Source of the DNA: Candidatus Gastranaerophilales bacterium
GTDB taxonomy: Bacteria > Cyanobacteriota > Vampirovibrionia > Gastranaerophilales > UBA9971
Assembly: GCA_028278305.1 (NCBI GenBank)
Contig: JANQEP010000140.1
Location: 1-45,878 of the forward strand
DNA length: 45,878 nt
Direction: 5' to 3'
The notes under the pieces were generated by a model, which saw only the letters and a program-made list of their open reading frames with translations, had not been told where the DNA came from and ran no database searches. Made by a program: the position numbers and the translations under genes. The first letter of the stretch is position 1. Each line of letters opens with the position of its first letter. This document shows positions 1-45,864 of this stretch, in pieces.

Positions 1-60
1 CGCCCACCCTTAAAGGTGGTTAAGGGACTTCGTCCCTTAACAATTCCATATAGATTTTTG

Positions 61-98
61 AAAAATTTTAAAATGCGTAAGTTTTTATTCTTTACCCC
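61..98 (+). repeat. Intergenic repeat family 1, copy 1
   Basis: AAAAATTTTAAAATGCGTAAGTTTTTATTCTTTACCCC. Positions 61-97 are 37/37 identical to copy 2. Confidence 0.9.
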
Positions 99-270
99 GT
101 AAACAAAAAATTTCTTAAAATTTATAGAAAAAAGTATGCTGTCAGCACATCTCCTTCGGGCTGGGCGGGCATTTTGAAAAAATTTATAAGCAGCAGCTTG
201 AGTAAAAAAAATGAACAATCCGGGAAAACTTTTCGTTTTAGAATATAGAAAAAATTTCAAGGTGAAAAAA

Positions 271-1955: not shown

Positions 1956-3584
1956 ATGATACCGGTTGATATAATAGCCTGGATTCTTTTTGTTTACCTT
2001 GCATATTATGTTTTTTACAGATATGTAATTATTTTCAGGTCATCTAAAGGCAGGTTTTATGATATTGAAAAACGTGAATATGAATCTTCCTACGATCGAA
2101 AATTCACAATAATTATTTATTCACATAACAGCTCCGCAAAAGTAAAATCACTCGTAGAATCGTTTGCCCGTCAAAATTATGATGAGAAAAAGTATTCTAT
2201 AAACGTTATTCTCGATAACTGTGACAGCGAAAATACAAAACTGCTGGAAATCCTTGGCGGTACAAAGCTATGGAGAATAAACACCGACGTAAAACCCATA
2301 GGGAAATATAAAGCGTTTGCCTGGCTCCTGGAGAGAATCAGGGCTTTTGAAAATACAAATGCTTTTGTTTTTCTTGACGCCGACTGCAAAATTAAAAGCG
2401 ATTTTCTTGAAAAAGCCAATCTTAATCTTAACGAGGAGTCAGTTATAGCCGGGGAAATCATAAAAAGAAAGAATTTTTTACTTAACAGGATTGTTAACGT
2501 AAAAAATAAAATTAATAACAGGGTAATGAGGCATGGAAGGTTTTATACTTCTCTGGGAAACATAATTGATACTGATGTTTTGCTTATAAAGCAGGATATT
2601 CTGGAAAAAATTGAATTTGAGTCCGTTAAAAACGGCTTTGAAGAGTTTGAATACCCTGTTAAGCTTAAATATTTCAAGGTAGCTGTAGCATATTCAAGTG
2701 ATATAACGGTTTATAAAAACCAGATCGAAACATTAAAATCAATTGCAATAGATGAATACAGGAAAAGATACGGTTCCCTGAGAGCGTTTATAAACAATTT
2801 TAGTATCCTGTTTACCAGAAGCAGCCTTTCTGTTAAAGAATTCATATTATCAATGCTATATCCCTCAGGGTCTGTTTTTTTTCTCTGGAATATTGTTTTA
2901 ATGGGCATAATTTTAACTTATCCGTCTGCCCAGTTTTCCCGGCTTATAACCCTGGATATTCTCTGGGGATTACTGGTTTTAAAGATTTTTTCCGATTTTT
3001 ATTCGCTAATAGCCCTGCGGGGAAGTATTCTTGATTATTATCATTCTTTGCTGCTGTTTTTGCTGTCGCCTGTTATTTACTTAAGGTCAATACTGGTAGG
3101 GTTTGTAACCACACCAGCTGCTGGAAAAGAAAGAGAAGCGCATAATCCCGGAGTTATTAATTTTGAAAAAAATACAGCTGATGTAACCATAACCGACGGT
3201 AAAAAGGAATTTCCCTGCAAAATAGAGGTGATCAAAACAGATGAAAACGCCAGGGCTACGTTTATGTTCAGGGATAAGAAACTCAGCTCTTCTAGGCATC
3301 CCCGTGTAAGCTATGCAGTGGAGGAAATTGTAGAGAAGTTGAAAAAGCACGGTTTTTCGCTTAAAATTTGCTCAAACTGCGGGTATTTCCTGATAACAGA
3401 ATCCACCGCCGCCCATTCAGACGGGGAAAAAGGGTATTGCCTGTACAATAACTTTAAGGAAAACTCAAAGGAAAAAAAGTTTATGCCGGTCTGGGATTCC
3501 TGCAAAAATATAATTCCGGCTCAGGCAAGAGCATATATTTTACAGCAGCTCGGGCTTGAAAAATCTTCATCCGGAAGCAGGTAA
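1956..3584 (+). CDS. GT2-like membrane glycosyltransferase with C-terminal Cys-rich cytoplasmic domain
   Basis: An N-terminal TM segment is followed by a GT-A-like core (FTIIIYSHNS..., NVILDNCDSEN, FLDADCKI = DxD). A multi-TM block spans about aa 295-385. A soluble tail of about 157 aa carries CSNC...C...C. Confidence 0.6.
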   Translation: MIPVDIIAWILFVYLAYYVFYRYVIIFRSSKGRFYDIEKREYESSYDRKFTIIIYSHNSSAKVKSLVESFARQNYDEKKYSINVILDNCDSENTKLLEILGGTKLWRINTDVKPIGKYKAFAWLLERIRAFENTNAFVFLDADCKIKSDFLEKANLNLNEESVIAGEIIKRKNFLLNRIVNVKNKINNRVMRHGRFYTSLGNIIDTDVLLIKQDILEKIEFESVKNGFEEFEYPVKLKYFKVAVAYSSDITVYKNQIETLKSIAIDEYRKRYGSLRAFINNFSILFTRSSLSVKEFILSMLYPSGSVFFLWNIVLMGIILTYPSAQFSRLITLDILWGLLVLKIFSDFYSLIALRGSILDYYHSLLLFLLSPVIYLRSILVGFVTTPAAGKEREAHNPGVINFEKNTADVTITDGKKEFPCKIEVIKTDENARATFMFRDKKLSSSRHPRVSYAVEEIVEKLKKHGFSLKICSNCGYFLITESTAAHSDGEKGYCLYNNFKENSKEKKFMPVWDSCKNIIPAQARAYILQQLGLEKSSSGSR

Positions 3585-3877
3585 CTTTTGTTAAGAAATA
3601 TAAATCATTTTTTATTATTTTTTTATCATTATTTTTTATAAACTGGATATATAATTCATATTGTATAAATACATAGCAAGTATAGGCAAATTTAAGCTAA
3701 AATAACCCAAAACCCTTCTTTCAAGTGCATTTTCTCCTAAAACACCTTAAAACGCCTATTAATCAGGAAAAATGGCAATTTTTGTTTAAACAAAGTTTTT
3801 AAATTAATAGAAGTAGAATAATAGTTAAAAACTAATGTAGAAATTTAGCAATAAATATTTTGGAAGGGGAGTAAATT

Positions 3878-7271: not shown

Positions 7272-7297
7272 ACTTATAAGGGGTAAACAATAAAAAA
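7272..7297 (-). repeat. Intergenic repeat family 1, partial or degenerate copy 5
   Basis: The reverse complement reads TTTTTTATTGTTTACCCCTTATAAG. This matches the 3' part of the element plus the copy-3 flank (TTTTTATTCTTTACCCCTTATATAAG). It lies just upstream of nrdG. Confidence 0.55.
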
Positions 7298-7390
7298 TTA
7301 ATAAAAATCGTTAAAAGTAGAGCTGCTGTTATACCTTAAATGAACGAAGCCCGCACCTCATGCCTGGTGAAGCGTACTTGCGGAAATTAT

Positions 7391-10057
7391 TCAGCTTTCA
7401 AGAGATTTAAGCAGGTTTCTAATGGACTCTGACTGCTCTTCGATTTCACTGATGCGCTCTCTGGTTTTAACAATTACTTCTTTAGGAGCGCTCTCCAGAA
7501 ATTGCGGGCTATCCATCCTTGATTTAAGACCTTTTTTTTCTTTTGTCAGGATTTCCAGCTCTTTTGTCTGTCTTTTTACTTCTTTATCAAGGTCGATTAA
7601 CCCTTCCAGGGAAACCGCAATAAGTGATTTACCTACCATAGCAGTCGCGGAACGTGAAGGAATTTCTTTTGCCACCCCGGATTCCGTTAACATTTGATCA
7701 ACCCGCGCAAGCGATTTTACATAAAACTCGCTAATTTCCACATCTTCTTTATCCTGGTTATTCGCGCAGAAAATTTTAACGTTTATACATTCCGAAACCG
7801 GAATATTAAAGGATTGCCTGATATTTCTAAGAGCTTTTACAATATCAATTGCTTTATTAATTTTCCTGTCAGCTTCTTCATTTTTAAAAAAAGGTTCATA
7901 TACAGGGAATTCCGTAATCATTAACGATATTTGATCACCCTTAAAAGCTTTTCCGGGAATTAACCTCCATATTTCCTCGGTTATATGAGGAATTATAGGA
8001 TGCATTAGCCTTAAAGACCTTTCAAGAATGTATTTTAATATTCTCTGGGTATTTAATTTCATTTGAGGGTTTTGAAGCTGGATTTTAGCTATCTCCAGGT
8101 ACCAGTCACAATATGCGCTCCAGAAAAATTCGTATAAAAGATGCGCGCACTCACCAAACCTGAAAGATTCCAGGTTTTCGTTTACCAGCCTGTTAACTTC
8201 GGAATATTTATGTAAAATCCACTTATCAGCTATGGTTAAAGAGGTCATATCAACCGGTTTATCATCAGACCCTTCGAGGTTCATAAGCACAAATCTTGAA
8301 GCGTTCCATAGTTTGTTTGCGAAATTTCTTCCGTGTTCAAATCTCTCGTCAGAAAGCTTTATATCCTGTCCGCCGTAAGTAACAAGGCTTGTAAGAGTGA
8401 ACCTCATGGCATCAGCGCCGTATTTATCAATAATTTCAACCGGGTCAATGGTATTGCCTTTTGACTTGCTCATTTTTTGTCCTTTTTCATCGCGGATTAA
8501 ACCGTGAATATAGACATACTTAAACGGTGATTTTTGGGTAAATTTATAGCCCATAACCGCCATTCTGGCTACCCAGAAGAAGATTATGTCAAACCCTGTA
8601 ATAAGCGTATCTGTGGGGTAGAATTTTTTAAAATCAGGATTTTTAACATCGGGCCAGCCCATAGTAGAAAAGGGCCATAACGCTGATGAAAACCAGGTAT
8701 CAAGAACATCAGGATCCTGTTTTATATCTGAGCTATTACATTTTGTGCAAGCCTCGGGTTTTTCTGTACAAACCATCATTTCTCCGCAGTCTGTACAGTA
8801 ATAAGCCGGTATTCTGTGTCCCCACCATAACTGCCTGCTTATACACCAGTCCCTGACGTTGTTCATCCAGTCCAGGTAGACCCTGGTCCATCTTTCCGGG
8901 ACAAAATTCAGTTCTTTTTTACTGACTGCTTTTACTGGTTTTTCCGCAAGCGGACGCATTCTTACAAACCATTGCTCTGATAAATAAGGCTCTATTGTGC
9001 TATTACAGCGCTGGCAGTGTCCGACACCGTGTTCATGATCCCTTGCCCTGACTAATTGTCCCTGTTTTTTAAGAACTTCAAGGACTTTATCCCTGGCTTC
9101 ATACCTGTTAAGCCCCCTTAAATCAGACGGAACATAGCTGTTATCGGACATATTCCCGTCTTCATCCATGATCCAGACAGGAGAAAAGCCGTGTTTCTTA
9201 CCAATTTCATAATCATTCGGGTCATGAGCGGGCGTAATCTTTAAAGCTCCTGTTCCAAAACCTATTTCAACATTTTCATCCGCGATTATCGGAATTTCCC
9301 GCCCTATAACCGGTATAACTGCAGTCTTACCTATCAAATGGTTAAACCTGTTATCATCAGGGTTAACCGCAACGGCAACATCGCCAAACATTGTCTCAGG
9401 TCTGGTTGTTGCGATTACAATTGCCCCAAATTCATCCTTGAAAGGGTATGCTATCTCCCAGAGATATCCTTTTTCTGTTAAATACTCGGTTTCAATATCA
9501 CTTATAGCTGACCTGCACCGGGGACACCAGTTAACAATATATGTTCCCTTGTAGACCAAGCCGTCATTGTATAAATTTACAAAAACTTCTTTTACTGCCT
9601 CGGAGCATCCGGCATCAAGTGTGAATCTTTCCCTGGAAAGGTCAAAAGACGCCCCCAGTCGTTTAAACTGGTTTAAAATTTTCTTTCTATGTTGATTTGC
9701 CCAATCCCAGGTGATTTCAAGAAATTTTTTTCTACCTATATCCTGTCTGGTTAAGCCTTCTTTTTTTAATTTTTTTTCAACAACGTTCTGTGTGGCGATA
9801 CCGGCATGATCGGCTCCGGGAAGCCATAGAGTTTCAAACCCTTTCATTCTCTTGTATCTTACCAGGATGTCCTGAAGAGTACCGTCCAGGGCATGCCCCA
9901 TATGAAGAACGCCTGTTACGTTAGGAGGAGGAATAACAAGGCTGAACGAAGGTTTTTCACTATTGACATCTGCCTTGAAAAACCCGTTGTTCTCCCAAAA
10001 TTTATATATCTTATCCTCGGTTTCCTTTGGATTATATGTTTTTTCCAGTTGTTTCAT
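7391..10057 (-). CDS. valS: Valine--tRNA ligase
   Basis: Class I HIGH (PPPNVTGVLHMGHAL) and KMSKS motifs, a CP1 editing region and a C-terminal coiled coil are present. The ORF track starts at a TTG at 10096. ATG 10057 has a GGAG 6 nt upstream and gives MKQLEKTYNPKETE... Confidence 0.95.
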   Translation of the reverse strand: MKQLEKTYNPKETEDKIYKFWENNGFFKADVNSEKPSFSLVIPPPNVTGVLHMGHALDGTLQDILVRYKRMKGFETLWLPGADHAGIATQNVVEKKLKKEGLTRQDIGRKKFLEITWDWANQHRKKILNQFKRLGASFDLSRERFTLDAGCSEAVKEVFVNLYNDGLVYKGTYIVNWCPRCRSAISDIETEYLTEKGYLWEIAYPFKDEFGAIVIATTRPETMFGDVAVAVNPDDNRFNHLIGKTAVIPVIGREIPIIADENVEIGFGTGALKITPAHDPNDYEIGKKHGFSPVWIMDEDGNMSDNSYVPSDLRGLNRYEARDKVLEVLKKQGQLVRARDHEHGVGHCQRCNSTIEPYLSEQWFVRMRPLAEKPVKAVSKKELNFVPERWTRVYLDWMNNVRDWCISRQLWWGHRIPAYYCTDCGEMMVCTEKPEACTKCNSSDIKQDPDVLDTWFSSALWPFSTMGWPDVKNPDFKKFYPTDTLITGFDIIFFWVARMAVMGYKFTQKSPFKYVYIHGLIRDEKGQKMSKSKGNTIDPVEIIDKYGADAMRFTLTSLVTYGGQDIKLSDERFEHGRNFANKLWNASRFVLMNLEGSDDKPVDMTSLTIADKWILHKYSEVNRLVNENLESFRFGECAHLLYEFFWSAYCDWYLEIAKIQLQNPQMKLNTQRILKYILERSLRLMHPIIPHITEEIWRLIPGKAFKGDQISLMITEFPVYEPFFKNEEADRKINKAIDIVKALRNIRQSFNIPVSECINVKIFCANNQDKEDVEISEFYVKSLARVDQMLTESGVAKEIPSRSATAMVGKSLIAVSLEGLIDLDKEVKRQTKELEILTKEKKGLKSRMDSPQFLESAPKEVIVKTRERISEIEEQSESIRNLLKSLES

Positions 10058-10136
10058 CTGCATCTCCAAAAAGATTCCTTTGGTTTTTACAGCCAAATAA
10101 AAGATATCATAAACTTAAACTATTTTTAATATTAAA

Positions 10137-10190
10137 GGGTAAAGAATAAAAACTTACGCATTTTAAAATTTTTTAATTCCTTAATTAAAT
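10137..10190 (-). repeat. Intergenic repeat family 1, copy 2 (extended form)
   Basis: The reverse complement of 10137-10173 equals copy 1 exactly. The 5' extension (TTAAGGAATTAA...) matches copy 3 and overlaps the treY stop codon. It lies about 80 nt upstream of the valS ATG. Confidence 0.9.
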
Positions 10191-17763: not shown

Positions 17764-18181
17764 CTATCCACCTCATGTGTCTTTTATACCTACCGTCAGG
17801 GAACTCTAAACAAATCCGACAGAGTTAATTTTCAGGCTAAATGCATTTGATGTTTTATTTGCATCTTTGATATTCCCTATTTATTCCACATTTTATAGCT
17901 AATTAATCTTTTTGGGGCAAAGTATTAACACATTTAGACAAAATTTTTACAAAAAATCGCATTATCCCAAATTTTTATTAAGGAATTAACAAAAATTTTA
18001 AAAGGCGTAAGTTTTTATTCTTTACCCCTTATATAAGCAGTAATTTAAGTTTGTATAAAGTTAATTAAACTTTAATCAACTTTTGTTAATACTAAACATG
18101 CTTATTATTGAAACAAACTGTGCTCGTAATAAAATAAAAAACACGGCTTAAATTTCATATAAAATTTAAAATGGATAGACT
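17764..18181. other. Candidate replication-origin region (oriC) upstream of dnaA
   Basis: This is a 418-bp AT-rich gap immediately upstream of dnaA. Gene orientation flips here: seven minus-strand genes lie to the left and four plus-strand genes to the right. Only degenerate DnaA-box-like 9-mers are present (TATTCCACA at 17882-17890, CTATCCACC at 17765-17773). Confidence 0.35.
17973..18028 (+). repeat. Intergenic repeat family 1, copy 3 (extended form)
   Basis: TTTTTATTAAGGAATTAACAAAAATTTTAAAAGGCGTAAGTTTTTATTCTTTACCCC. The core has 1 mismatch to copies 1 and 2. It ends about 154 nt upstream of the dnaA ATG. Confidence 0.9.
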
Positions 18182-23383: not shown

Positions 23384-23405
23384 AAATTTTTTATTAGGAA
23401 CAAAG

Positions 23406-23445
23406 AAAAAATTTTTAAAACGCGTAAGTTTTTATTCCTTACCCC
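23406..23445 (+). repeat. Intergenic repeat family 1, copy 4
   Basis: AAAAAATTTTTAAAACGCGTAAGTTTTTATTCCTTACCCC differs from copy 1 by 2 substitutions and 1 extra T. Its last 7 nt supply the Gly codon and TAA stop of the convergent ABC exporter gene. Confidence 0.9.
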
Positions 23446-25241
23446 GAGACTGCACTTGTTTCTTTTTCCTTAAACTGCATATCATAAAGGGTTTTGTATG
23501 CTCCGTTTGAAATACTAACAAGCTCATCGTGCCTGCCCATTTCCACAATCTGCCCTTCGTTAATGACTGCAATTTTATTCACGTTTTTAATAGTAGAGAG
23601 CCTGTGAGCTATTACGATTACGGTTTTATTTTCTATCAATTTATCCATTGCCATCTGAACAATTGCTTCTGACTTATTATCAAGTGCTGATGTGGCTTCA
23701 TCAAGGATAACTAACGGCGCATTTTTAAGCATAGCCCTTGCAATGGCAACCCTTTGTTTCTGACCGCCTGAGAGTCTTACTCCTCTTTCGCCGATTTCTG
23801 TATCGAGCCCGTCAGGCAGTTCTGCTATGAATTTCTCAAGATAAGCGTCTTTTAAAACTTTTTGGATTTCCGATTCTGATGCATTAAAATTGCCAAGAAT
23901 GATACTTTCCCTTATAGTGCCGGTAAACAGGAAGTTATCCTGAAATACCACAGCTATATTTTGTCTCAGGCTCGCAAGTGCTATTTCTCTTACATCAATG
24001 CCGTCAATTTTTATTGAGCCTGACTTAATATCGTAGAATCTTGGTATAAGGTTTGCTATTGTGGTCTTTCCTCCGCCAGAGTTCCCTACGAGAGCAAGAG
24101 ATTCACCCATTTTAATATCAAAACTAACGTCTTTTAGTACAGGTGCTTTTTCATCATATTCAAACCATACGTTTTCAAATTTGATAGAGTCTTTGATAGT
24201 GTTGACTTTTACAGCGTTAGGACTGTCTTTTATTGTTGGCTCAAGGTCAAAAACGTCCATTACCCTGCTCATGGCAACAAAACTACCCTGCATTCCCGTA
24301 AAGGTATTTCCCACTGATTTAATCGGCTTGTACAATAATAGTAATGCTGCCATAAATGAACCTATGCTGCCGAATGTAAGCGCTCCCTCATAAAACATAT
24401 GTGTGCTTTGCCACATAACCCCTGCGATTCCGAATGATGCGATAAGATACATTAGCGGGGAAAGCCATCCAACTCTTTTTGTTAATCTCATTTGCAGATT
24501 AAATGATTCAAATAATTTTTGTATTACTTTTTTGTGCTGATAATCCTGTAGATTAAAGGCGGTTATTATCCGGTTGCCACCAAATGTTTCATAAACATAG
24601 GTGCTTAACTTACTGCCAACTTTCATTCCTTCGTTTGATACATATTTTACGTGTTTTCTGATTAGTGAAATAGGCAAAAACGCGCCTACCATCATAATCA
24701 AAGCAAAGAAAGACAATTTCCAGGATATATATAAAAGTACTGCAATTAACCCGATTGAAGACGTTATATTAGAAATCAGGTTTTTAAGGTTTATTATTAA
24801 ACCTGAACAGGCTCCATCCGCATCTCCTAAAAACCTGCTCATAACAAGTCCTGATGAGTTTTTATCATAAAGCGCCGATTCAAAAGTCAAAAGTTTTTTA
24901 AAGAGATGGTTCTTCAGTCCTATCGCCATTTTGTATCCAACCCAGTCATTCAAGTAAGAATTTAAATATTTTAATAACCCCTGAATAAAAGCAAAAAGAA
25001 TAATCGCATACGGAACCAGAAAAACTAACTGTCTGGCTGCGGGATCTGTTTTGCCAGCCTGTAGTAAATCTAAAAACGGTTTAATGCAAAATGCGGTTAC
25101 GCTATCCAAAAGCCCAACAGGAATAGCGATTAATACCCCCAAAATTCCTCTAAATAAAAAGGGCTTAACAAACGGAAACATTCTCTGGTACATATATTTA
25201 TAATCAAACGACCGGTCTCGGGTTATTTCTTCTAACTTCAT
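23439..25241 (-). CDS. ABC exporter, fused permease/ATPase (MsbA/ABCB-like)
   Basis: An N-terminal six-TM domain is followed by Walker A (GNSGGGKTT), the ABC signature (LSGGQKQRVAIARA) and Walker B (LVILDEATSALD). Confidence 0.9.
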   Translation of the reverse strand: MKLEEITRDRSFDYKYMYQRMFPFVKPFLFRGILGVLIAIPVGLLDSVTAFCIKPFLDLLQAGKTDPAARQLVFLVPYAIILFAFIQGLLKYLNSYLNDWVGYKMAIGLKNHLFKKLLTFESALYDKNSSGLVMSRFLGDADGACSGLIINLKNLISNITSSIGLIAVLLYISWKLSFFALIMMVGAFLPISLIRKHVKYVSNEGMKVGSKLSTYVYETFGGNRIITAFNLQDYQHKKVIQKLFESFNLQMRLTKRVGWLSPLMYLIASFGIAGVMWQSTHMFYEGALTFGSIGSFMAALLLLYKPIKSVGNTFTGMQGSFVAMSRVMDVFDLEPTIKDSPNAVKVNTIKDSIKFENVWFEYDEKAPVLKDVSFDIKMGESLALVGNSGGGKTTIANLIPRFYDIKSGSIKIDGIDVREIALASLRQNIAVVFQDNFLFTGTIRESIILGNFNASESEIQKVLKDAYLEKFIAELPDGLDTEIGERGVRLSGGQKQRVAIARAMLKNAPLVILDEATSALDNKSEAIVQMAMDKLIENKTVIVIAHRLSTIKNVNKIAVINEGQIVEMGRHDELVSISNGAYKTLYDMQFKEKETSAVSG

Positions 25242-25418: not shown

Positions 25419-25452
25419 GAAATTTCAAAAAATACAATTCGTGATTCGGGTT
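25419..25452 (-). repeat. Intergenic repeat family 2, copy A
   Basis: The reverse complement AACCCGAATCACGAATTGTATTTTTTGAAATTTC matches 35972-36005 with 1 mismatch over the first 33 nt. Confidence 0.85.
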
Positions 25453-25596
25453 AAATAGACTTGAAGCCAGGGAATGAATCCGATAAACATGAATAATAAT
25501 CAAAAAATAAGTTGTGGTTAAGAATATATTGCAAAAAAGATGATTTATATATGATAATAACACTTATGTCTAAAAATCAAAGAAGGATATGAGCTT

Positions 25597-34515: not shown

Positions 34516-34652
34516 CCTGTATAAAATCATCTAAGAATTTTTTCTTTATTCCTTATTTAAAACAAGAAATAATAAAAATTTTCTGAAAGAAAGCAATTTT
34601 TATTATTTATAAACATTATATAATAAGAATAAACAAAAAATTATAGTGTGAG

Positions 34653-35948: not shown

Positions 35949-35971
35949 GTTAAAATTTTTAAAAATTAATC

Positions 35972-36005
35972 AACTCGAATCACGAATTGTATTTTTTGAA
36001 ATTTT
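35972..36005 (+). repeat. Intergenic repeat family 2, copy B
   Basis: AACTCGAATCACGAATTGTATTTTTTGAAATTTT lies between the convergent 34653 gene and rpoC2. Confidence 0.85.
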
Positions 36006-36029: not shown

Positions 36030-39000
36030 TTATTCTTCTTCCTCTGTAAGCTCACTGTCATCAGAGTAGATTTCTTCCATTTCCTCTTCTGTATCTTCTC
36101 CTTCTTCATAAATTTCAGAAGAGGCTTCTTCTGCTGAAAATTCAGGTGAGCCGAACATTCCTTCAATTTCCTCGAGAATAGCTGAAGGCTTTCTTGCCCC
36201 GGCTTTACTGAATCTTCTTTTTCTTTCCTCTTCTTCCTGGTCTTCGGAAGTATGAGTAAGATGATAATGCCCTGTACCTGCAGGGATCAATCTTCCAATT
36301 ATGACGTTTTCCTTAAGTCCTCTTAAAACGTCTTTTTTACCTTCAACAGCAGCTTCTGTCAGTACTCTTGTCGTTTCCTGGAAACTTGCCGCTGAAATAA
36401 AGCTTTCCGTATTTAAGCTGGCTTTTGTTATACCCAGAAGAACAGGTGTATACTCAGCCGGAGCAGATTCTTCCATTTCCGATATTTTTACATTTTCTTG
36501 CTCAACCAGTTTTGCTTCAGTTAATTCACCGGGTAGAAGCTTTGTATTTCCGGATTCATCAATTTTAACTTTTTTAGTCATCTGCCTTACAATAACTTCA
36601 ACGTGCTTATCAGCGATTTCAACACCCTGGGACCTGTATACTCTTTGGACTTCATCTACCAGGTACTTTTGAACGGCATTAGCTCCGCTAAGTCTTATAA
36701 CATCATGCGGGTTAAGCGGTCCGCTGGTAAGAGGTTGACCTTTAGTAATTTTTTGTTTATCAGATACGATTATATTGGAATCAACCGGAAATTTAATTTC
36801 CTGGCGTCCTGACTCAGTTACAAGATATAATCTTGGGACATCTTCTTCGTATTCAATTTCAATTTCTCCGTTTTCTTCTGCCAGAATTGCGCTCTCTTTA
36901 GGCTTTCTGGCTTCAAGAAGTTCTTCTACTCTCGGAAGACCCTGGACAATGTCACCGGTTTTCTGACGTTCAAAAACAAGCGTTGCAAGTAAATCACCAC
37001 GCTGTACCAATCCCTCATTTTCAACCTGAAGCTGCGTTCCAACGCTGATGAGATATGGTCTTGCTATATGTACCGTAATTGTATTTCCCTTTATCTCTAC
37101 TACTTTACCGGAGATTGTGGCTTTTTCACCGCTCTCAGAGACAATCTGGTCTATACTTATCAGGTCATTTTTCTTTATTATCGGTGAGGTTTTAAGGTCG
37201 AGTATTTCATATGAATCCGGAGTTATAAGGAAAATCCTCCTTACTTCTTTGCTATCAGGTTCTTCTTTCAGGCTGACTTTCGCTTTATTTTTTACCAGGA
37301 CCTGGGTTTTGGAAATCGGGGTTTTTGGTTCTATAAATTGACCTGACTCAACCAGAAGTTCTGTTTGAAGAGAAGTTTTTTCCCTTGAAGCCGCTTCTGT
37401 TTCTCTTCTTACAATGAGGTTTTCAAGAACAACCAGCTTAAGATTCTGTTCTTCAGCAGGCGCTTCAGCAGGATATAGCTCTACTAATCCTTTAAGATGG
37501 CTCAGGTAACCTTCCATCTGGATTACAAGGCTTGTTCTTGTCAGGTTAGCCCCTTCCAACTGGCGTATTCTTGCGCCGTCTCTGTATTGCAGTTGTGTAA
37601 CAGAAACCAGGTTAATAAGATCTGTTTCTGTTGATTCAAATTCAATACTTACCTCTTTTGGTCCGATTTCATATTCCTGAATCGGCCTGATAAGAACTTC
37701 CACAGGTTTTGCTTCGGTTGTTTCCTCTAATTCTCCGGAGTCTTCATCTTCAATATCCATTGCTTTAGAGTATTCATGTTCATAGTTTATAAAGTTTATT
37801 ATGCTCTTTTCTTTTGCTTTAACACCTTTGGTAATTTCTGTTCCTTTTTCAACTATTTCCCCGTCTTCAACGTTAAGGGTATTTACATCTTCTACTTTTA
37901 CAAGTTCTCCGGGTCTTACAATGACTTCCTGAATTATGTTGTTGTTTTCCTTGATTTCAACAATGCCGTCAATATGAGTTCTTATGTCCTTGACGACTTC
38001 TGTGCCGGAAACAACATAAGTTCCTGATTCTGTCATTTTTAATGAAGAATCCTTACTTACTTGATGAATTTCTTCAGGAATAAATATAATTTTACCCGGT
38101 TTGGTTATTATCTGATTTTCATCAACTTCAATACCTTCATAGCGAATTTCGCCGCTGGAGGTTACTTTATTTTCTTCCTCGATAAGCTCGGCAATGACCA
38201 TGCCATTCTCGACAACTGTACCTACCGGAGATTTTACTATATAGATTTCATCTGATCCCTTAACCTGCCATAATTGCTCTTTTTTAGTTGCTTCAAGAAT
38301 AGCATTTTTAGGGGTTAATGAAGCTATAACAACCGTAATTTCTTTACCGCCTATAATTTTCTTTATTTTTTTACCTTTAAGTTCAGTCTCTTCAAGTTCA
38401 AGATCATCAGGAATCCTGACTTCTCCTCCATGATCACTTAATGTGGTTGTTTCAGCGATGATTTCCCCGGATTTTACTTCCTGTTCATTTTTTACAAGAA
38501 TAGTTGAATTTCCAGGCAAGCCGTAAACATCACCGGCAAGTACCCATATTTTTCCGCCCTTATTGGCTGTTTTGCTAATGTTGCCCTGTCTATCACGTTT
38601 TTCATCAACGTTAAAACCTTCAAACAGAATTTTCCCGCCAACATCGGATGTTATGTCCTTTGTTGCTCTCTCTGTCAGCCTTCCTGAGCTGTCGAGTGTG
38701 CTGGGTTCATATTCTGCAATTATATTGCCTTTTTGAATTTTATCACCTTTTTGAGCAAATACTGTAGCTCCATGAGGTATTATATATGAGGTTTTCTTAC
38801 TCTTACTGTCCTGTATTTCCAGCTTTCCTTGTTTAGATGTGACGTTTACTATATCTCCATGTCTGGTTCTAAGCTCACGGGTTGTTAACCCTGTAAGTAC
38901 TTCTCCATCTGTTTTTGAAACTATCTGACGAATACTTCCCGCGCCTTTGAATACACCACCGGTGTGGAAAGTTCTCATTGTAAGCTGTGTTCCAGGCTCT

Positions 39001-39995
39001 CCAATACTCTGTGCTGCTATAATTCCTATAGCTTCACCTATATCAACAGGTCTGTTATTTGTAAGCGCCCATCCATAGCAATGCTGGCATATTCCATGTT
39101 CAGTTTCACATGTTAGCGGTGAGCGAATTTTTATTTTCTTAATAGAAAGATCTCTTACGATGTTTATCTGCTCTTCAGATAAAATTGTATTTTTGTTTAT
39201 TACAACATTTTTGTTTTCATCTTTTACATCTTCTATTATGGCTCTTCCCAAAAGTCTTTCAGTTAATGAGACAATTTCTTTTTCCGCGTCGGTAATTGTT
39301 TCAATTTCAATGCCTTCAGAAGTACCGCAGTCTTTTTCACGAATAATAACATCCTGAGCCACGTCTACCAGTCTTCTGGTTAAATATCCCGAATCAGCTG
39401 TCTTAAGAGCTGTATCAACAAGTCCTTTTCTTGCGCCGTAGCTGGAAATAATATACTCTGTTACACTAAGACCCTCGGTAAAATTAGCTTTAATAGGAAG
39501 GTCAATGATTTGTCCCTGTGCGTCAGCCATCAGCCCACGCATTCCCACCAGCTGACTAACCTGGCTTATATTACCCCTTGCACCCGAGAATGCCATCATA
39601 TATACCGGGTTTGTCTTTTTGAAATTTTCTACTACGCTTTGGGTAAGTTTTTCTGTGGTTTCACTCCAGGTGTCAATTACTTTTGTGTATCTTTCTACCT
39701 CAGTGATCTCACCTTTAAGGTAGCGCTGTGTAGACTTATCAATTTCGTTTTCCGCGTTTTTAATAAGTTCTTTTTTTGCGGGAGGTATGTCTAAATCATC
39801 AATGGATATAGTAGTTCCCGCGTTGGTGGCGTATTTAAATCCCAGATTTTTAAGACAATCAGCAAGATATGCTGTTTTTGAGGTTCCATACTCCAGATAA
39901 ATCTTGGAAAGTAGTTTATTTAAAACTTTTTTATCAACTACACTATTTATAAATTCAAATGATTTTTTCGGGGTTTTTGGCATTAGGGTGCTCAT
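36030..39995 (-). CDS. rpoC2: DNA-directed RNA polymerase subunit beta' C-terminal part (split rpoC2)
   Basis: Beta' C-terminal half motifs are present (GARGNISQVSQLVGMRGLMA, bridge helix LSVTEYIISSYGARKGLVDTALKTADSGYLTRRLVDVAQD, trigger-loop GEPGTQLTMRTFHTGG). A large insertion follows the trigger loop, as in cyanobacteria. Confidence 0.97.
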   Translation of the reverse strand: MSTLMPKTPKKSFEFINSVVDKKVLNKLLSKIYLEYGTSKTAYLADCLKNLGFKYATNAGTTISIDDLDIPPAKKELIKNAENEIDKSTQRYLKGEITEVERYTKVIDTWSETTEKLTQSVVENFKKTNPVYMMAFSGARGNISQVSQLVGMRGLMADAQGQIIDLPIKANFTEGLSVTEYIISSYGARKGLVDTALKTADSGYLTRRLVDVAQDVIIREKDCGTSEGIEIETITDAEKEIVSLTERLLGRAIIEDVKDENKNVVINKNTILSEEQINIVRDLSIKKIKIRSPLTCETEHGICQHCYGWALTNNRPVDIGEAIGIIAAQSIGEPGTQLTMRTFHTGGVFKGAGSIRQIVSKTDGEVLTGLTTRELRTRHGDIVNVTSKQGKLEIQDSKSKKTSYIIPHGATVFAQKGDKIQKGNIIAEYEPSTLDSSGRLTERATKDITSDVGGKILFEGFNVDEKRDRQGNISKTANKGGKIWVLAGDVYGLPGNSTILVKNEQEVKSGEIIAETTTLSDHGGEVRIPDDLELEETELKGKKIKKIIGGKEITVVIASLTPKNAILEATKKEQLWQVKGSDEIYIVKSPVGTVVENGMVIAELIEEENKVTSSGEIRYEGIEVDENQIITKPGKIIFIPEEIHQVSKDSSLKMTESGTYVVSGTEVVKDIRTHIDGIVEIKENNNIIQEVIVRPGELVKVEDVNTLNVEDGEIVEKGTEITKGVKAKEKSIINFINYEHEYSKAMDIEDEDSGELEETTEAKPVEVLIRPIQEYEIGPKEVSIEFESTETDLINLVSVTQLQYRDGARIRQLEGANLTRTSLVIQMEGYLSHLKGLVELYPAEAPAEEQNLKLVVLENLIVRRETEAASREKTSLQTELLVESGQFIEPKTPISKTQVLVKNKAKVSLKEEPDSKEVRRIFLITPDSYEILDLKTSPIIKKNDLISIDQIVSESGEKATISGKVVEIKGNTITVHIARPYLISVGTQLQVENEGLVQRGDLLATLVFERQKTGDIVQGLPRVEELLEARKPKESAILAEENGEIEIEYEEDVPRLYLVTESGRQEIKFPVDSNIIVSDKQKITKGQPLTSGPLNPHDVIRLSGANAVQKYLVDEVQRVYRSQGVEIADKHVEVIVRQMTKKVKIDESGNTKLLPGELTEAKLVEQENVKISEMEESAPAEYTPVLLGITKASLNTESFISAASFQETTRVLTEAAVEGKKDVLRGLKENVIIGRLIPAGTGHYHLTHTSEDQEEEERKRRFSKAGARKPSAILEEIEGMFGSPEFSAEEASSEIYEEGEDTEEEMEEIYSDDSELTEEEE

Positions 39996-40056: not shown

Positions 40057-41769
40057 TTAAGAAACAACAGCTTCTCTTACAGCCATGTTAAATATGATCC
40101 TGCCCGGGGTTGTGACTATTTTTTCACCTTTTTCATCCCTGACTTTAACCTTGGAGTGCATATTAATAATTCCCGCTTCCAGGGCTGTGATTACGTCATT
40201 AAAGTCAAGAAAACATCTTTCCGGTTCTGATTCATCCTGGGTATCCAGGGTTAAATAATAAATACCGAGAACCATGTCCTGTGTAGGTGTTATACAGGGC
40301 TTACCCGTGGCGGGAAGCAGTATGTTATTTGGTGAGAGCATAAGCATTCTTGCTTCTGTCTGAGCCTCTATCGAGAGAGGAACGTGTACAGCCATCTGGT
40401 CGCCGTCAAAGTCTGCGTTAAATGCTGAGCAGACTAACGGGTGCAGTTGAATAGCACGACCTTCTACAAGAACCGGCTCAAATGCCTGGATTCCAAGCCT
40501 GTGAAGAGTCGGGGCTCGGTTCAGCATTACGGGATGTCCGTCAATGACTTCTTCCAGGGCATCCCAGACCACGTTTTCCGAGCGTTCAATTTTCTTTTTG
40601 GCTGATTTTATATTCTGAACAATCCCGCGCTCAATTAATTTATTAACTACGAACGGCTTGAAAAGCTCTACAGCCATTTCTTTAGGAAGCCCGCACTGAT
40701 TTAATTTAAGCTGCGGTCCCACAACAATAACGCTTCTTCCCGAGTAGTCAACCCTTTTTCCGAGAAGATTCTGTCTGAAGCGTCCCTGCTTTCCTTCAAT
40801 AATATTACTTAAAGATTTAAGAGGTCTGTTATTCGGACCGATTACGGTTCTTCCGCGTCTTCCGTTATCAATAAGGGCATCCACAGCTTCCTGGAGCATT
40901 CTTTTTTCGTTTCTTACGATAATTTCAGGCGCCCCCATTTCTATCAGCCTTTGAAGACGGTTATTTCTGTTGATAACTCTTCTGTATAAATCATTAAGAT
41001 CACTGGTGGCAAATCTTCCGCCATCGAGCTGTACCATTGGGCGAAGATCAGGCGGAGTTACCGGCAGCGCATCCATTATCATCCAGGTGGGATCTGTATT
41101 ACTGGAAACCAGCGACTCTACAAGCCTCAATCTTTTAATTACCTTAGCTTTCTTCTGTATTGAGCCGCCAACAGATTCCAGTTCATTTCTCAGCGATTCT
41201 ATCATCTCATTAAGGTCAATTTCCGAAAGAAGCTGTTTAATTGCTTCCGCGCCGATTCCTACCTCAAGTGTTGACTCTTCATTTTCGAGCATATAGTCTT
41301 CATATTCTTCTTCAGGCAGCAATTGCGTCTTTTTATAATCAGTATCACCGGGGTTCAGCACTATATAGCTATTAAAATAAATTACCTGTTCCAGGTCTCT
41401 TAAGGACATATCAAGGATCAGTCCTAAATAGCTCGGGATTCCTTTTAAAAACCATATATGAGAAACCGGCGCCGCAAGATTAATATGTCCCATTCTGTGA
41501 CGTCTTACCTTGCTGTCAGTAACTTCTACACCGCAACGTTCACAGATTATACCTTTATGCCTTACTCTTTTATACTTACCGCAATAACATTCCCAGTCTT
41601 TTGAGGGACCAAAAGTTCTTTCACAGAATAAACCGTCACGTTCCGGTTTTAATGTCCGGTAATTAATAGTTTCAGGTTTGTTCACTTCTCCGAATGACCA
41701 TTTTAAGATCCTTTCAGGAGAGGCGATCCCTATTCTTATATAATCAAAATAATCTATACTGGTAGACAA
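40057..41769 (-). CDS. rpoC1: DNA-directed RNA polymerase subunit gamma (beta' N-terminal part, split rpoC1)
   Basis: Zn-finger [23 protein letters not shown] and the catalytic NADFDGDQM motif are present. It has a TTG start with AAGGGAG 7 nt upstream and ends where cyanobacterial gamma ends. Confidence 0.97.
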
Positions 41770-45807: not shown

Positions 45808-45864
45808 CATGAATGAAATCATGGAAATCATGACTATGACATGATTTTCATGATTTCATTCATG
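45808..45864. repeat. 25-bp inverted repeat built from AAATCATG units
   Basis: CATGAATGAAATCATGGAAATCATG-actatga-CATGATTTTCATGATTTCATTCATG pairs at 24/25 positions, with one G-T. It sits at the right edge of the window. Confidence 0.8.

Follow-up and report, generated by a model that had tools for sequence, protein, structure and literature searches.

A near-invariant intergenic repeat in gut Melainabacteria is probably one terminal arm of a non-autonomous DNA transposon

The stretch of DNA analysed here, which we call the window, is 45,878 nucleotides long, and the homologues of its DnaA and ValS assign it to Candidatus Gastranaerophilales (Melainabacteria). The Melainabacteria are a non-photosynthetic sister lineage of the Cyanobacteria. 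As in Cyanobacteria, the rpoC gene of the window is split (rpoC1 at 40057-41769, rpoC2 at 36030-39995), which fits this placement. Non-coding DNA makes up just 9.7% of the window, and it holds all five copies of a short repeat that stands beside unrelated genes, among them an anti-sigma/ECF operon, valS, a MalQ-like gene, dnaA and an ABC exporter.

A sequence-only reading of the window had described this repeat as a near-invariant element of 37-58 nt at five loci. We find four near-identical copies and a decayed fifth, all intergenic. The 37-mer AAAAATTTTAAAATGCGTAAGTTTTTATTCTTTACCC is matched exactly at 61-97 (+) and 10137-10173 (-), with one mismatch at 17991-18027 (+) and with three ungapped mismatches at 23408-23444 (+). 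Across 100 dinucleotide-preserving shuffles of the window there was no match at all to the 37-mer, and none is expected by chance. The partial copy that had been placed near 7272-7297 (-) is real, as 7281-7297 (-) matches the 3' 17-mer of the 37-mer with two mismatches and over 26 nt copy 3 and 7275-7300 share 92% identity. The 5' extension TTAAGGAATTAA that copies 2 and 3 were said to share is also present, giving 51 nt at 94% identity.

The question of an assembly artefact can be addressed with independent data. Logan assemblies from two sequencing runs (L005, L006 and L007) carry copy 3 and the partial copy intact, while other Logan contigs terminate within copy 2 and within copy 4, as is expected of a true multi-copy repeat. 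These observations fit a genuine repeat and argue against an artefact of a single assembly. Only the window contig itself spans the junctions of copies 1, 2 and 4.

We built an HMM from the window copies and diverged copies from the relative JANQIY, and later a second HMM from the arm tips. The features of the window that concern the repeat are listed below; the E-values for 54-100 and 7277-7303 are those of the first HMM, and that for 34527-34558 is from the arm-tip HMM.

1-53 (+): GC-rich core remnant of a full-length-type element, truncated by the contig start; within it lie CGCCCACCC..GGTGG, the module TTAACAATTCCATATAG and, at 19-41, a strong hairpin TTAAGGGACTTCGTCCCTTAA.
54-100 (+): copy 1, a right arm ATTTTTGAAAAATTTTAAAATGCGTAAGTTTTTATTCTTTACCCCG followed by TA (E = 7.7e-16).
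163-195 (+): a second-arm-type fragment fused to a G-rich core end, GGGCGGGCATTTTGAAAAAATTTATAAG.
about 7277-7303 (-): decayed arm TTTTTTATTGTTTACCCCTTA, the partial copy (E = 0.055).
10100-10131 (-): valS promoter-like block, also found in L014, L017, L018 and L019.
10133-10183 (-): copy 2, a derivative of ~51 nt in which the left terminus TAAGGAATTAA is joined to a right arm.
17979-18031 (+): copy 3, a derivative of ~53 nt with inverted arms overlapping back to back and TA at both ends.
23395-23446 (+): copy 4, a derivative of ~52 nt between convergent genes, matched on both strands by the arm-tip HMM.
34527-34558 (-): solo arm terminus AAATAAGGAATAAAGAAAAAATTCTTA in a divergent intergenic region (E = 0.0017).

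Copy 1 is an arm plus a core that is truncated at the contig start, and it ends 113 nt upstream of the anti-sigma/ECF operon. The core remnant folds well (z = -3.7). Its hairpin TTAAGGGACTTCGTCCCTTAA is seen again in L002, and the 23-mer at window 37-59 is seen inverted in L001. The module at 163-195 also stands at the end of L018, and Logan contig L004 starts within it, at window 174. The decayed arm sits between valS and a radical-SAM (nrdG-like) gene. Two of the copies reach into the ends of neighbouring genes. The MalQ-like gene stops at the TAA that ends copy 2, and the ABC exporter stops at a TTA in the right arm of copy 4 (23439-23441, read on the opposite strand). Truncation of the exporter C-terminus by copy 4 was ruled out, as the tail has a normal length when compared with homologues. 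Copy 4 does not lie upstream of a gene but fills a 55-nt gap between two convergent genes.

The nature of the repeat becomes apparent in related species. The first HMM matched four arms in the ENA contig L012; the DnaA of its species and that of the window share 80% identity. This contig hosts an element of ~150 nt twice, in opposite orientations, at ~3031-3180 (+) and ~8376-8525 (-). The two copies are ~97% identical from TAAGGGAGC to TTATTCCTTAA and differ at five positions, of which a flipped hairpin loop accounts for three. Their boundaries are sharp at both ends and their flanks are unrelated. Each consists of a left arm (TAAGGGAGCAACAAAAAATTCTTACTTAAAATTTTCAAAAT), a GC-rich core with a hairpin GCGCAGGC..GCCTGCGC followed by TTGTTAAATATAG, and a right arm (ATTTTTTGAAAATTTTAAGGCGTAAAAACTTTTTATTTATTCCTTAA). 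The arms are ~40-45 nt long, are inverted versions of one another and of the window 37-mer; the arm-tip HMM matches them at both ends of both copies, in inverted orientation (E = 3e-6 to 2e-5). No coding gene was called across either copy; each has TA at both ends and no transposase. Folded as DNA, the full element forms a long hairpin of -26.4 kcal/mol, compared with -15.2 +/- 2.9 for shuffled sequences (z = -3.94), and none of 200 shuffles folded as well.

The window aligns to this element in several places. The ATATAG junction and arm of copy 1 (window 48-103), that is, the 37-mer with its extension ATATAGATTTTTGAAAAATTTT, align to the L012 right arm (E = 1.9e-5), and the same extension is present in L001 and L002. 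The fragment at 163-195 is homologous to the junction of the left arm and the core, and the solo terminus at 34527-34558 is 85% identical to the left arm over 27 nt. By eye, CGCCCACCC..GGTGG also looks homologous to the L012 core. The 37-mer is the outer part of one terminal inverted-repeat arm. The element of 37-58 nt that had been taken for the unit is one end of an inverted-repeat element of ~150-190 nt, which is found whole in relatives.

Other relatives host their own forms. The MAG JANQEB has a variant of ~185 nt with a 26-nt terminal repeat TAAGGAACAAACAAAAAATTTTTAC, in which the left end TAAGTAGGTAACAAAAAATTTTTAC stands opposite the right end (in reverse complement) TAAGGAACAAACAAAAAATTTTTAC; the left arm of copy 4, TAGGAACAAAGAAAAAATTTTTA, closely matches this repeat. 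The JANQIY contig L017 has half an element at each end, two in all. A catalogue made with the arm-tip HMM comprises about 20 arms in the ~170 kb sampled, roughly one per 7 kb; it is not a genome-wide census, and a density for whole genomes would be an extrapolation. No second arm was recognisable with this HMM in the arm-plus-core copies L001 and L002.

Copies 2-4 (~51-53 nt) consist of little besides two arms joined back to back, the core having been deleted. This follows for copies 3 and 4 from matches of the arm-tip HMM on both strands, which in copy 3 cover 17979-18013 (+) and 17992-18031 (-). By hand count, the left 19 nt of copy 3 (TAAGGAATTAACAAAAATT) are identical to the outer part of the L012 left arm at 16 of 19 positions. 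Two arms placed back to back explain both the 5' extension of copies 2 and 3 and the weak hairpin that had been drawn for it.

The arm tips examined read TA and then AGG, the exceptions being the right end of copy 4 and its left arm (TA, then GG). TA flanks both ends of every complete copy, the trace expected from a transposase that duplicates TA, although in AT-rich DNA such as this TA is frequent by chance, and it could belong to the arm itself rather than to a target duplication. This ambiguity stems from gene order, which around dnaA, valS and the ABC gene is unlike that of the window in every relative sampled. Searches with the DnaA, ValS and ABC-exporter homologues thus gave no base-exact empty site to pair with a filled one, synteny being broken in all. 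As an observation on gene order itself, copies of the repeat stand at the junctions where window 1-24000 departs from L008, L010, L012, L014 and L017, and indeed at each point where the sampled species disagree in gene order. In JANQIY and JANQEB, for example, dnaA is followed by a gene of 542 aa of unknown function, which in the window lies 16 kb away behind the ECF operon.

The distribution of the repeat is narrow. Apart from the window's genome, the 23-mer GCGTAAGTTTTTATTNNTTACCC is present in a single one of 185,579 species representatives, namely the MAG JANQEB01, which shares its study and samples with window-type contigs and has three copies (L001-L003). These three exact copies may be mis-binned contigs of the window's species; both species are present in run SRR20820733, and the dnaA and valS loci of JANQEB itself carry a different arm variant. 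Diverged variants are found in all four of the species sampled from the window's clade. The exact 23-mer pattern is absent from JGI metagenomes and viral contigs, and a scan of viral contigs with the arm consensus found nothing. A looser pattern gave 27 matches in JGI metagenomes, all of which are due to chance, as none extends past the 21-mer that was searched for. A phage or plasmid origin was likewise rejected, with matches at chance level only (E ~0.04).

We think it likely that the repeat is the terminal inverted-repeat arm of a non-autonomous DNA transposon (MITE), moved in trans. MITEs are short elements, generally <200 bp but reaching ~400, that carry no transposase gene. They are also recognised by terminal inverted repeats, a core, a target-site duplication, a stable hairpin, empty and filled sites, and a partner insertion sequence (PMC3184786). 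The element measures ~150 nt in L012, ~185 nt in JANQEB and 51-53 nt in the window, which is too short for a transposase, and no transposase gene lies within the window. Terminal inverted repeats are found in both L012 copies, in JANQEB and in window copies 3 and 4, while a stable hairpin is formed by the full-length L012 element but not by the short window copies. Across the family, arms flank a core, copies stand in both orientations and are confined to intergenic DNA, lineages have variants of their own, and orthologous sites in relatives lack the element; from these observations we infer transposition, a TA target duplication and a transposase acting in trans.

The mechanism that we propose can be outlined as follows. 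The full form, of ~150-190 nt and without a gene, would have inverted arms of ~26-45 nt whose outer ends read TA, then AGGRA...AAAAAAYTTTTAC, with a GC-rich, hairpin-forming core between them. A transposase whose gene lies elsewhere would recognise the arms and place the element in AT-rich spacers between genes, apparently at TA, and copies would persist where genes and promoters stay unbroken. The arm variant GCGTAAGTTTTTATTCTTTACCCC would have multiplied recently in the window's genome, both with the core (copy 1, L001-L003) and as internally deleted forms of ~51-53 nt (copies 2-4), the core plausibly having been lost between the AAAAATT runs of the two arms. The sequences at 7277-7303 and 34527-34558 would be older copies that have decayed. 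Part of the spread may be due to recombination or to one-ended events, given that L001 and L002 have a single arm.

The conservation of the repeat does far exceed that of its surroundings, which had been put down to recent spread or strong selection. The first of these explains it better. The 5' half is unconserved in the JANQIY copy and in the decayed copy, so near-identity in the window reflects recency rather than constraint and is most readily explained by the recent multiplication of a single arm variant. There is a slim chance that copies of ~51-53 nt are still mobile, that the same arm variant has moved recently between co-resident Gastranaerophilales species, and that some copies have been co-opted. 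The arm variant is identical in the window and in the MAG JANQEB, whose DnaA and ValS are only 83% identical to those of the window. Co-option may apply to the stop codons supplied to the MalQ-like and ABC genes, and to the AT-tract beside the valS -35 hexamer. If this is true, the copies of ~51-53 nt would be among the smallest working transposition substrates in bacteria.

The position of several copies upstream of genes had suggested a promoter or leader function, and a selected cis-acting DNA signal is thus a natural rival to the MITE reading. Such a signal could act as a mobile promoter read by an alternative sigma factor, as an AT-tract enhancer of the UP kind or as the binding site of a global regulator. 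Among the ten copies whose orientation could be scored, six point toward the start of a downstream gene (the ECF operon, valS, dnaA, the nrdG-like gene, aroA in L003 and valS in JANQIY), and both of the informative tandem spacers are co-oriented. Moreover, 4-5 nt separate copy 2 from the valS -35 hexamer downstream of it, which is the place expected of an UP element, and promoters are carried by MITEs such as Correia (PMC10969869). However, the other four (copy 4, L001, L002 and one JANQIY copy) are directed at the 3' end of a convergent gene, the spacing between element and -35 hexamer varies from about -3 to 80 nt, and the lack of conservation of the 5' half in the JANQIY copy and in the partial copy also speaks against a signal. 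When compared with the consensus, no copy has a sigma-70-type -35/-10 pair with 16-18 nt spacing inside it. The inferred extended -10 promoter of valS (TTAAAA-N17-TATCTT with TGn) is conserved in five species. In JANQEB and L019 this promoter is conserved and the element is missing from the corresponding position, while in JANQIY a diverged copy stands 43 nt further upstream; L018, a third valS contig, begins at the promoter block. The dnaA promoter block (TTGAAA-16-TAAAAT) is likewise conserved in four species, three of which have unrelated sequence where the window has copy 3, 80 nt upstream of the block. The promoters of valS and dnaA therefore lie outside the element and are conserved without it, which indicates that the element is not the promoter of the genes that follow. 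We consider a cis-acting signal improbable. Sigma-70, ECF, sigma-28 and sigma-54 promoter readings of the 37-mer were rejected because the hexamer pair or spacing is inconsistent, and an NtcA/CRP-type site was rejected because GTA-N13-TAC is found where GTA-N8-TAC is required. Counted by hand, the spacing from GGAAT to CGTAA is 17 nt in copy 2, 19 nt in copy 3 and 21 nt in copy 4. Separately, the block upstream of dnaA, at window 18058-18140 and in L008, L010 and L012, consists of TTTAATCAAnTTTTGTTAATAC followed by TTGAAA-16-TAAAAT (GCTCGTAATAAAAT) and is probably the dnaA promoter together with an unknown operator or box.

There are two further rivals. An RNA element, be it a small RNA, a UTR motif or an attenuator, could explain why the orientation matches at least one neighbouring gene in every known case and why a hairpin can be drawn for copies 2 and 3. 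We nevertheless hold it to be very improbable. A covariance-model scan assigned the repeat to no Rfam family: the window has no match at the gathering score, and nothing overlaps the copies at E <= 5 (window, L001-L003) or E <= 1 (L012, L017). The hairpin proposed for the extended form did not hold up (z -0.5 to +1.25), and neither strand of the short window copies out-folds shuffled sequences (sense z -1.0 to +1.25). The T-to-C change of copy 4 is one-sided only (G-U to G-C) and is not a compensatory pair. Neither in this hairpin nor in a smaller one (GCGTAAG/TTTACCC) does any pair change on both sides, and pairing equals that of shuffled controls. Copy 3 also lies upstream of the dnaA promoter with no co-oriented gene before it, so that no known transcript would contain it. 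The other rival is a REP/REPIN-type repeat, an extragenic palindrome that a domesticated tyrosine transposase (RAYT) would spread, with the ~150-nt form of L012 as a REPIN doublet of inverted REPs. The L012 form is an inverted pair that folds into a hairpin, the copies are strictly intergenic, three of the six copies with both neighbours known are in convergent-gene spacers, and other small GC-rich hairpin repeats with compensatory changes occur in the same spacers. REP/REPIN and BIME/NIME repeats are also short modules that return in varied combinations and orientations, often between convergent genes, and the spacers here similarly combine G-rich runs, CATGAATGA units and small GC hairpins, as mosaic repeats do. 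However, REPs are imperfect palindromes of 20-40 nt whose GTAG or CGTC tag defines two large superfamilies, whereas the arm here starts with TAAGG and has neither tag (PMC3733652). A single arm is no convincing palindrome and folds no better than shuffled sequences, the element is AT-rich where REP stem-loops are G-C-rich (PMC3184786), and no RAYT gene was found within the 46-kb window. We therefore regard this reading as improbable, and prefer the MITE.

Several other candidates were rejected. A leader peptide (MRKFLFFTP) has no ribosome-binding site, and copies 3 and 4 as well as the JANQIY copy no longer have its ATG, in agreement with the earlier argument against a peptide. An intrinsic terminator on the reverse strand has too weak a stem (-1.9 kcal/mol) and stands behind a gene in only three of eight copies. 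The 38-bp repeat of Tn3-type elements would require GGGG and ACGYTAAG on the same strand, which is not the case. For an integron attC, dif, ter, parS or uptake sequence the supporting anatomy is absent.

Among known MITEs, the Correia elements of Neisseria (CREE/NEMIS) are a close parallel. They are intergenic MITEs of ~100-150 nt with long terminal inverted repeats, occur in full-length and internally shortened forms near gene starts, form a hairpin and are flanked by TA. Correia elements target TA. The two are likened by description, and we know of no resemblance between their sequences. Correia elements belong to a different host phylum and contain promoter and IHF sites (PMC10969869), whereas the arm described here has neither promoter hexamers nor an IHF consensus. 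Their shortest forms also differ in size, being ~51-53 nt here and ~104-157 nt in Correia (PMC3184786). Nezha and other cyanobacterial MITEs (Anabaena/Nostoc, Microcystis) come from a related host lineage, Cyanobacteriota sensu lato. These are ~130-170 nt long, with terminal inverted repeats, a stable predicted hairpin and a presence that varies between close species (PMC3184786). Compared by description, Nezha differs in having a partner, ISNpu3, that shares its repeats, and documented empty and filled sites. Putative mobile promoters also place a near-identical sequence before unrelated housekeeping genes, but the genes here keep conserved promoters downstream and the element has no promoter consensus within it.

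The claim that the repeat belongs to no known class is not supported: the family is undescribed, but its class is that of the MITEs. We read it as a new MITE family, scattered between the genes of a few related gut Melainabacteria, and as an ordinary kind of selfish repeat rather than a new regulatory signal. In the literature that we searched there is no description of MITEs in Melainabacteria. The family appears to be dense and breaks short-read assemblies of uncultured gut bacteria. Knowledge of it can aid the assembly and binning of MAGs, and its lineage-specific variants may be used as strain markers. The result also cautions against taking such repeats for regulatory motifs, although it opens no new mechanism.

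The contigs examined host further repeats. At the contig end, window 45808-45864 forms a near-perfect hairpin with arms of 25 nt (CATGAATGAAATCATGGAAATCATG and its reverse complement). Tandem units of CATGAATGA(G) are present in L001 (640-720 and 1551-1567) and where L019 begins. The hairpin and these units look like a repeat family of their own. Two unrelated spacers, at 25420-25457 and 35967-36004, share a 38-nt inverted repeat (92%) that includes a terminator-like hairpin CAATTCGTGATTCGAGTTG followed by a T-run. In L019, a relative from SRR17165154, a direct repeat of ~45 nt (CCCGCTG..CGAACAAAG..CG..CTTAAGAAAAC) lies on either side of valS, at 1-60 and 2830-2880. Finally, a small GC hairpin is found both in L003 (~3650-3675, CCCGTATCAAGTACGGG) and in L017 (14-33, CCCCGCATCAAGTGCGGGG), with a TCAA loop in each and a compensatory change from T-A to C-G, as in a REP-like hairpin family residing in the same spacers.
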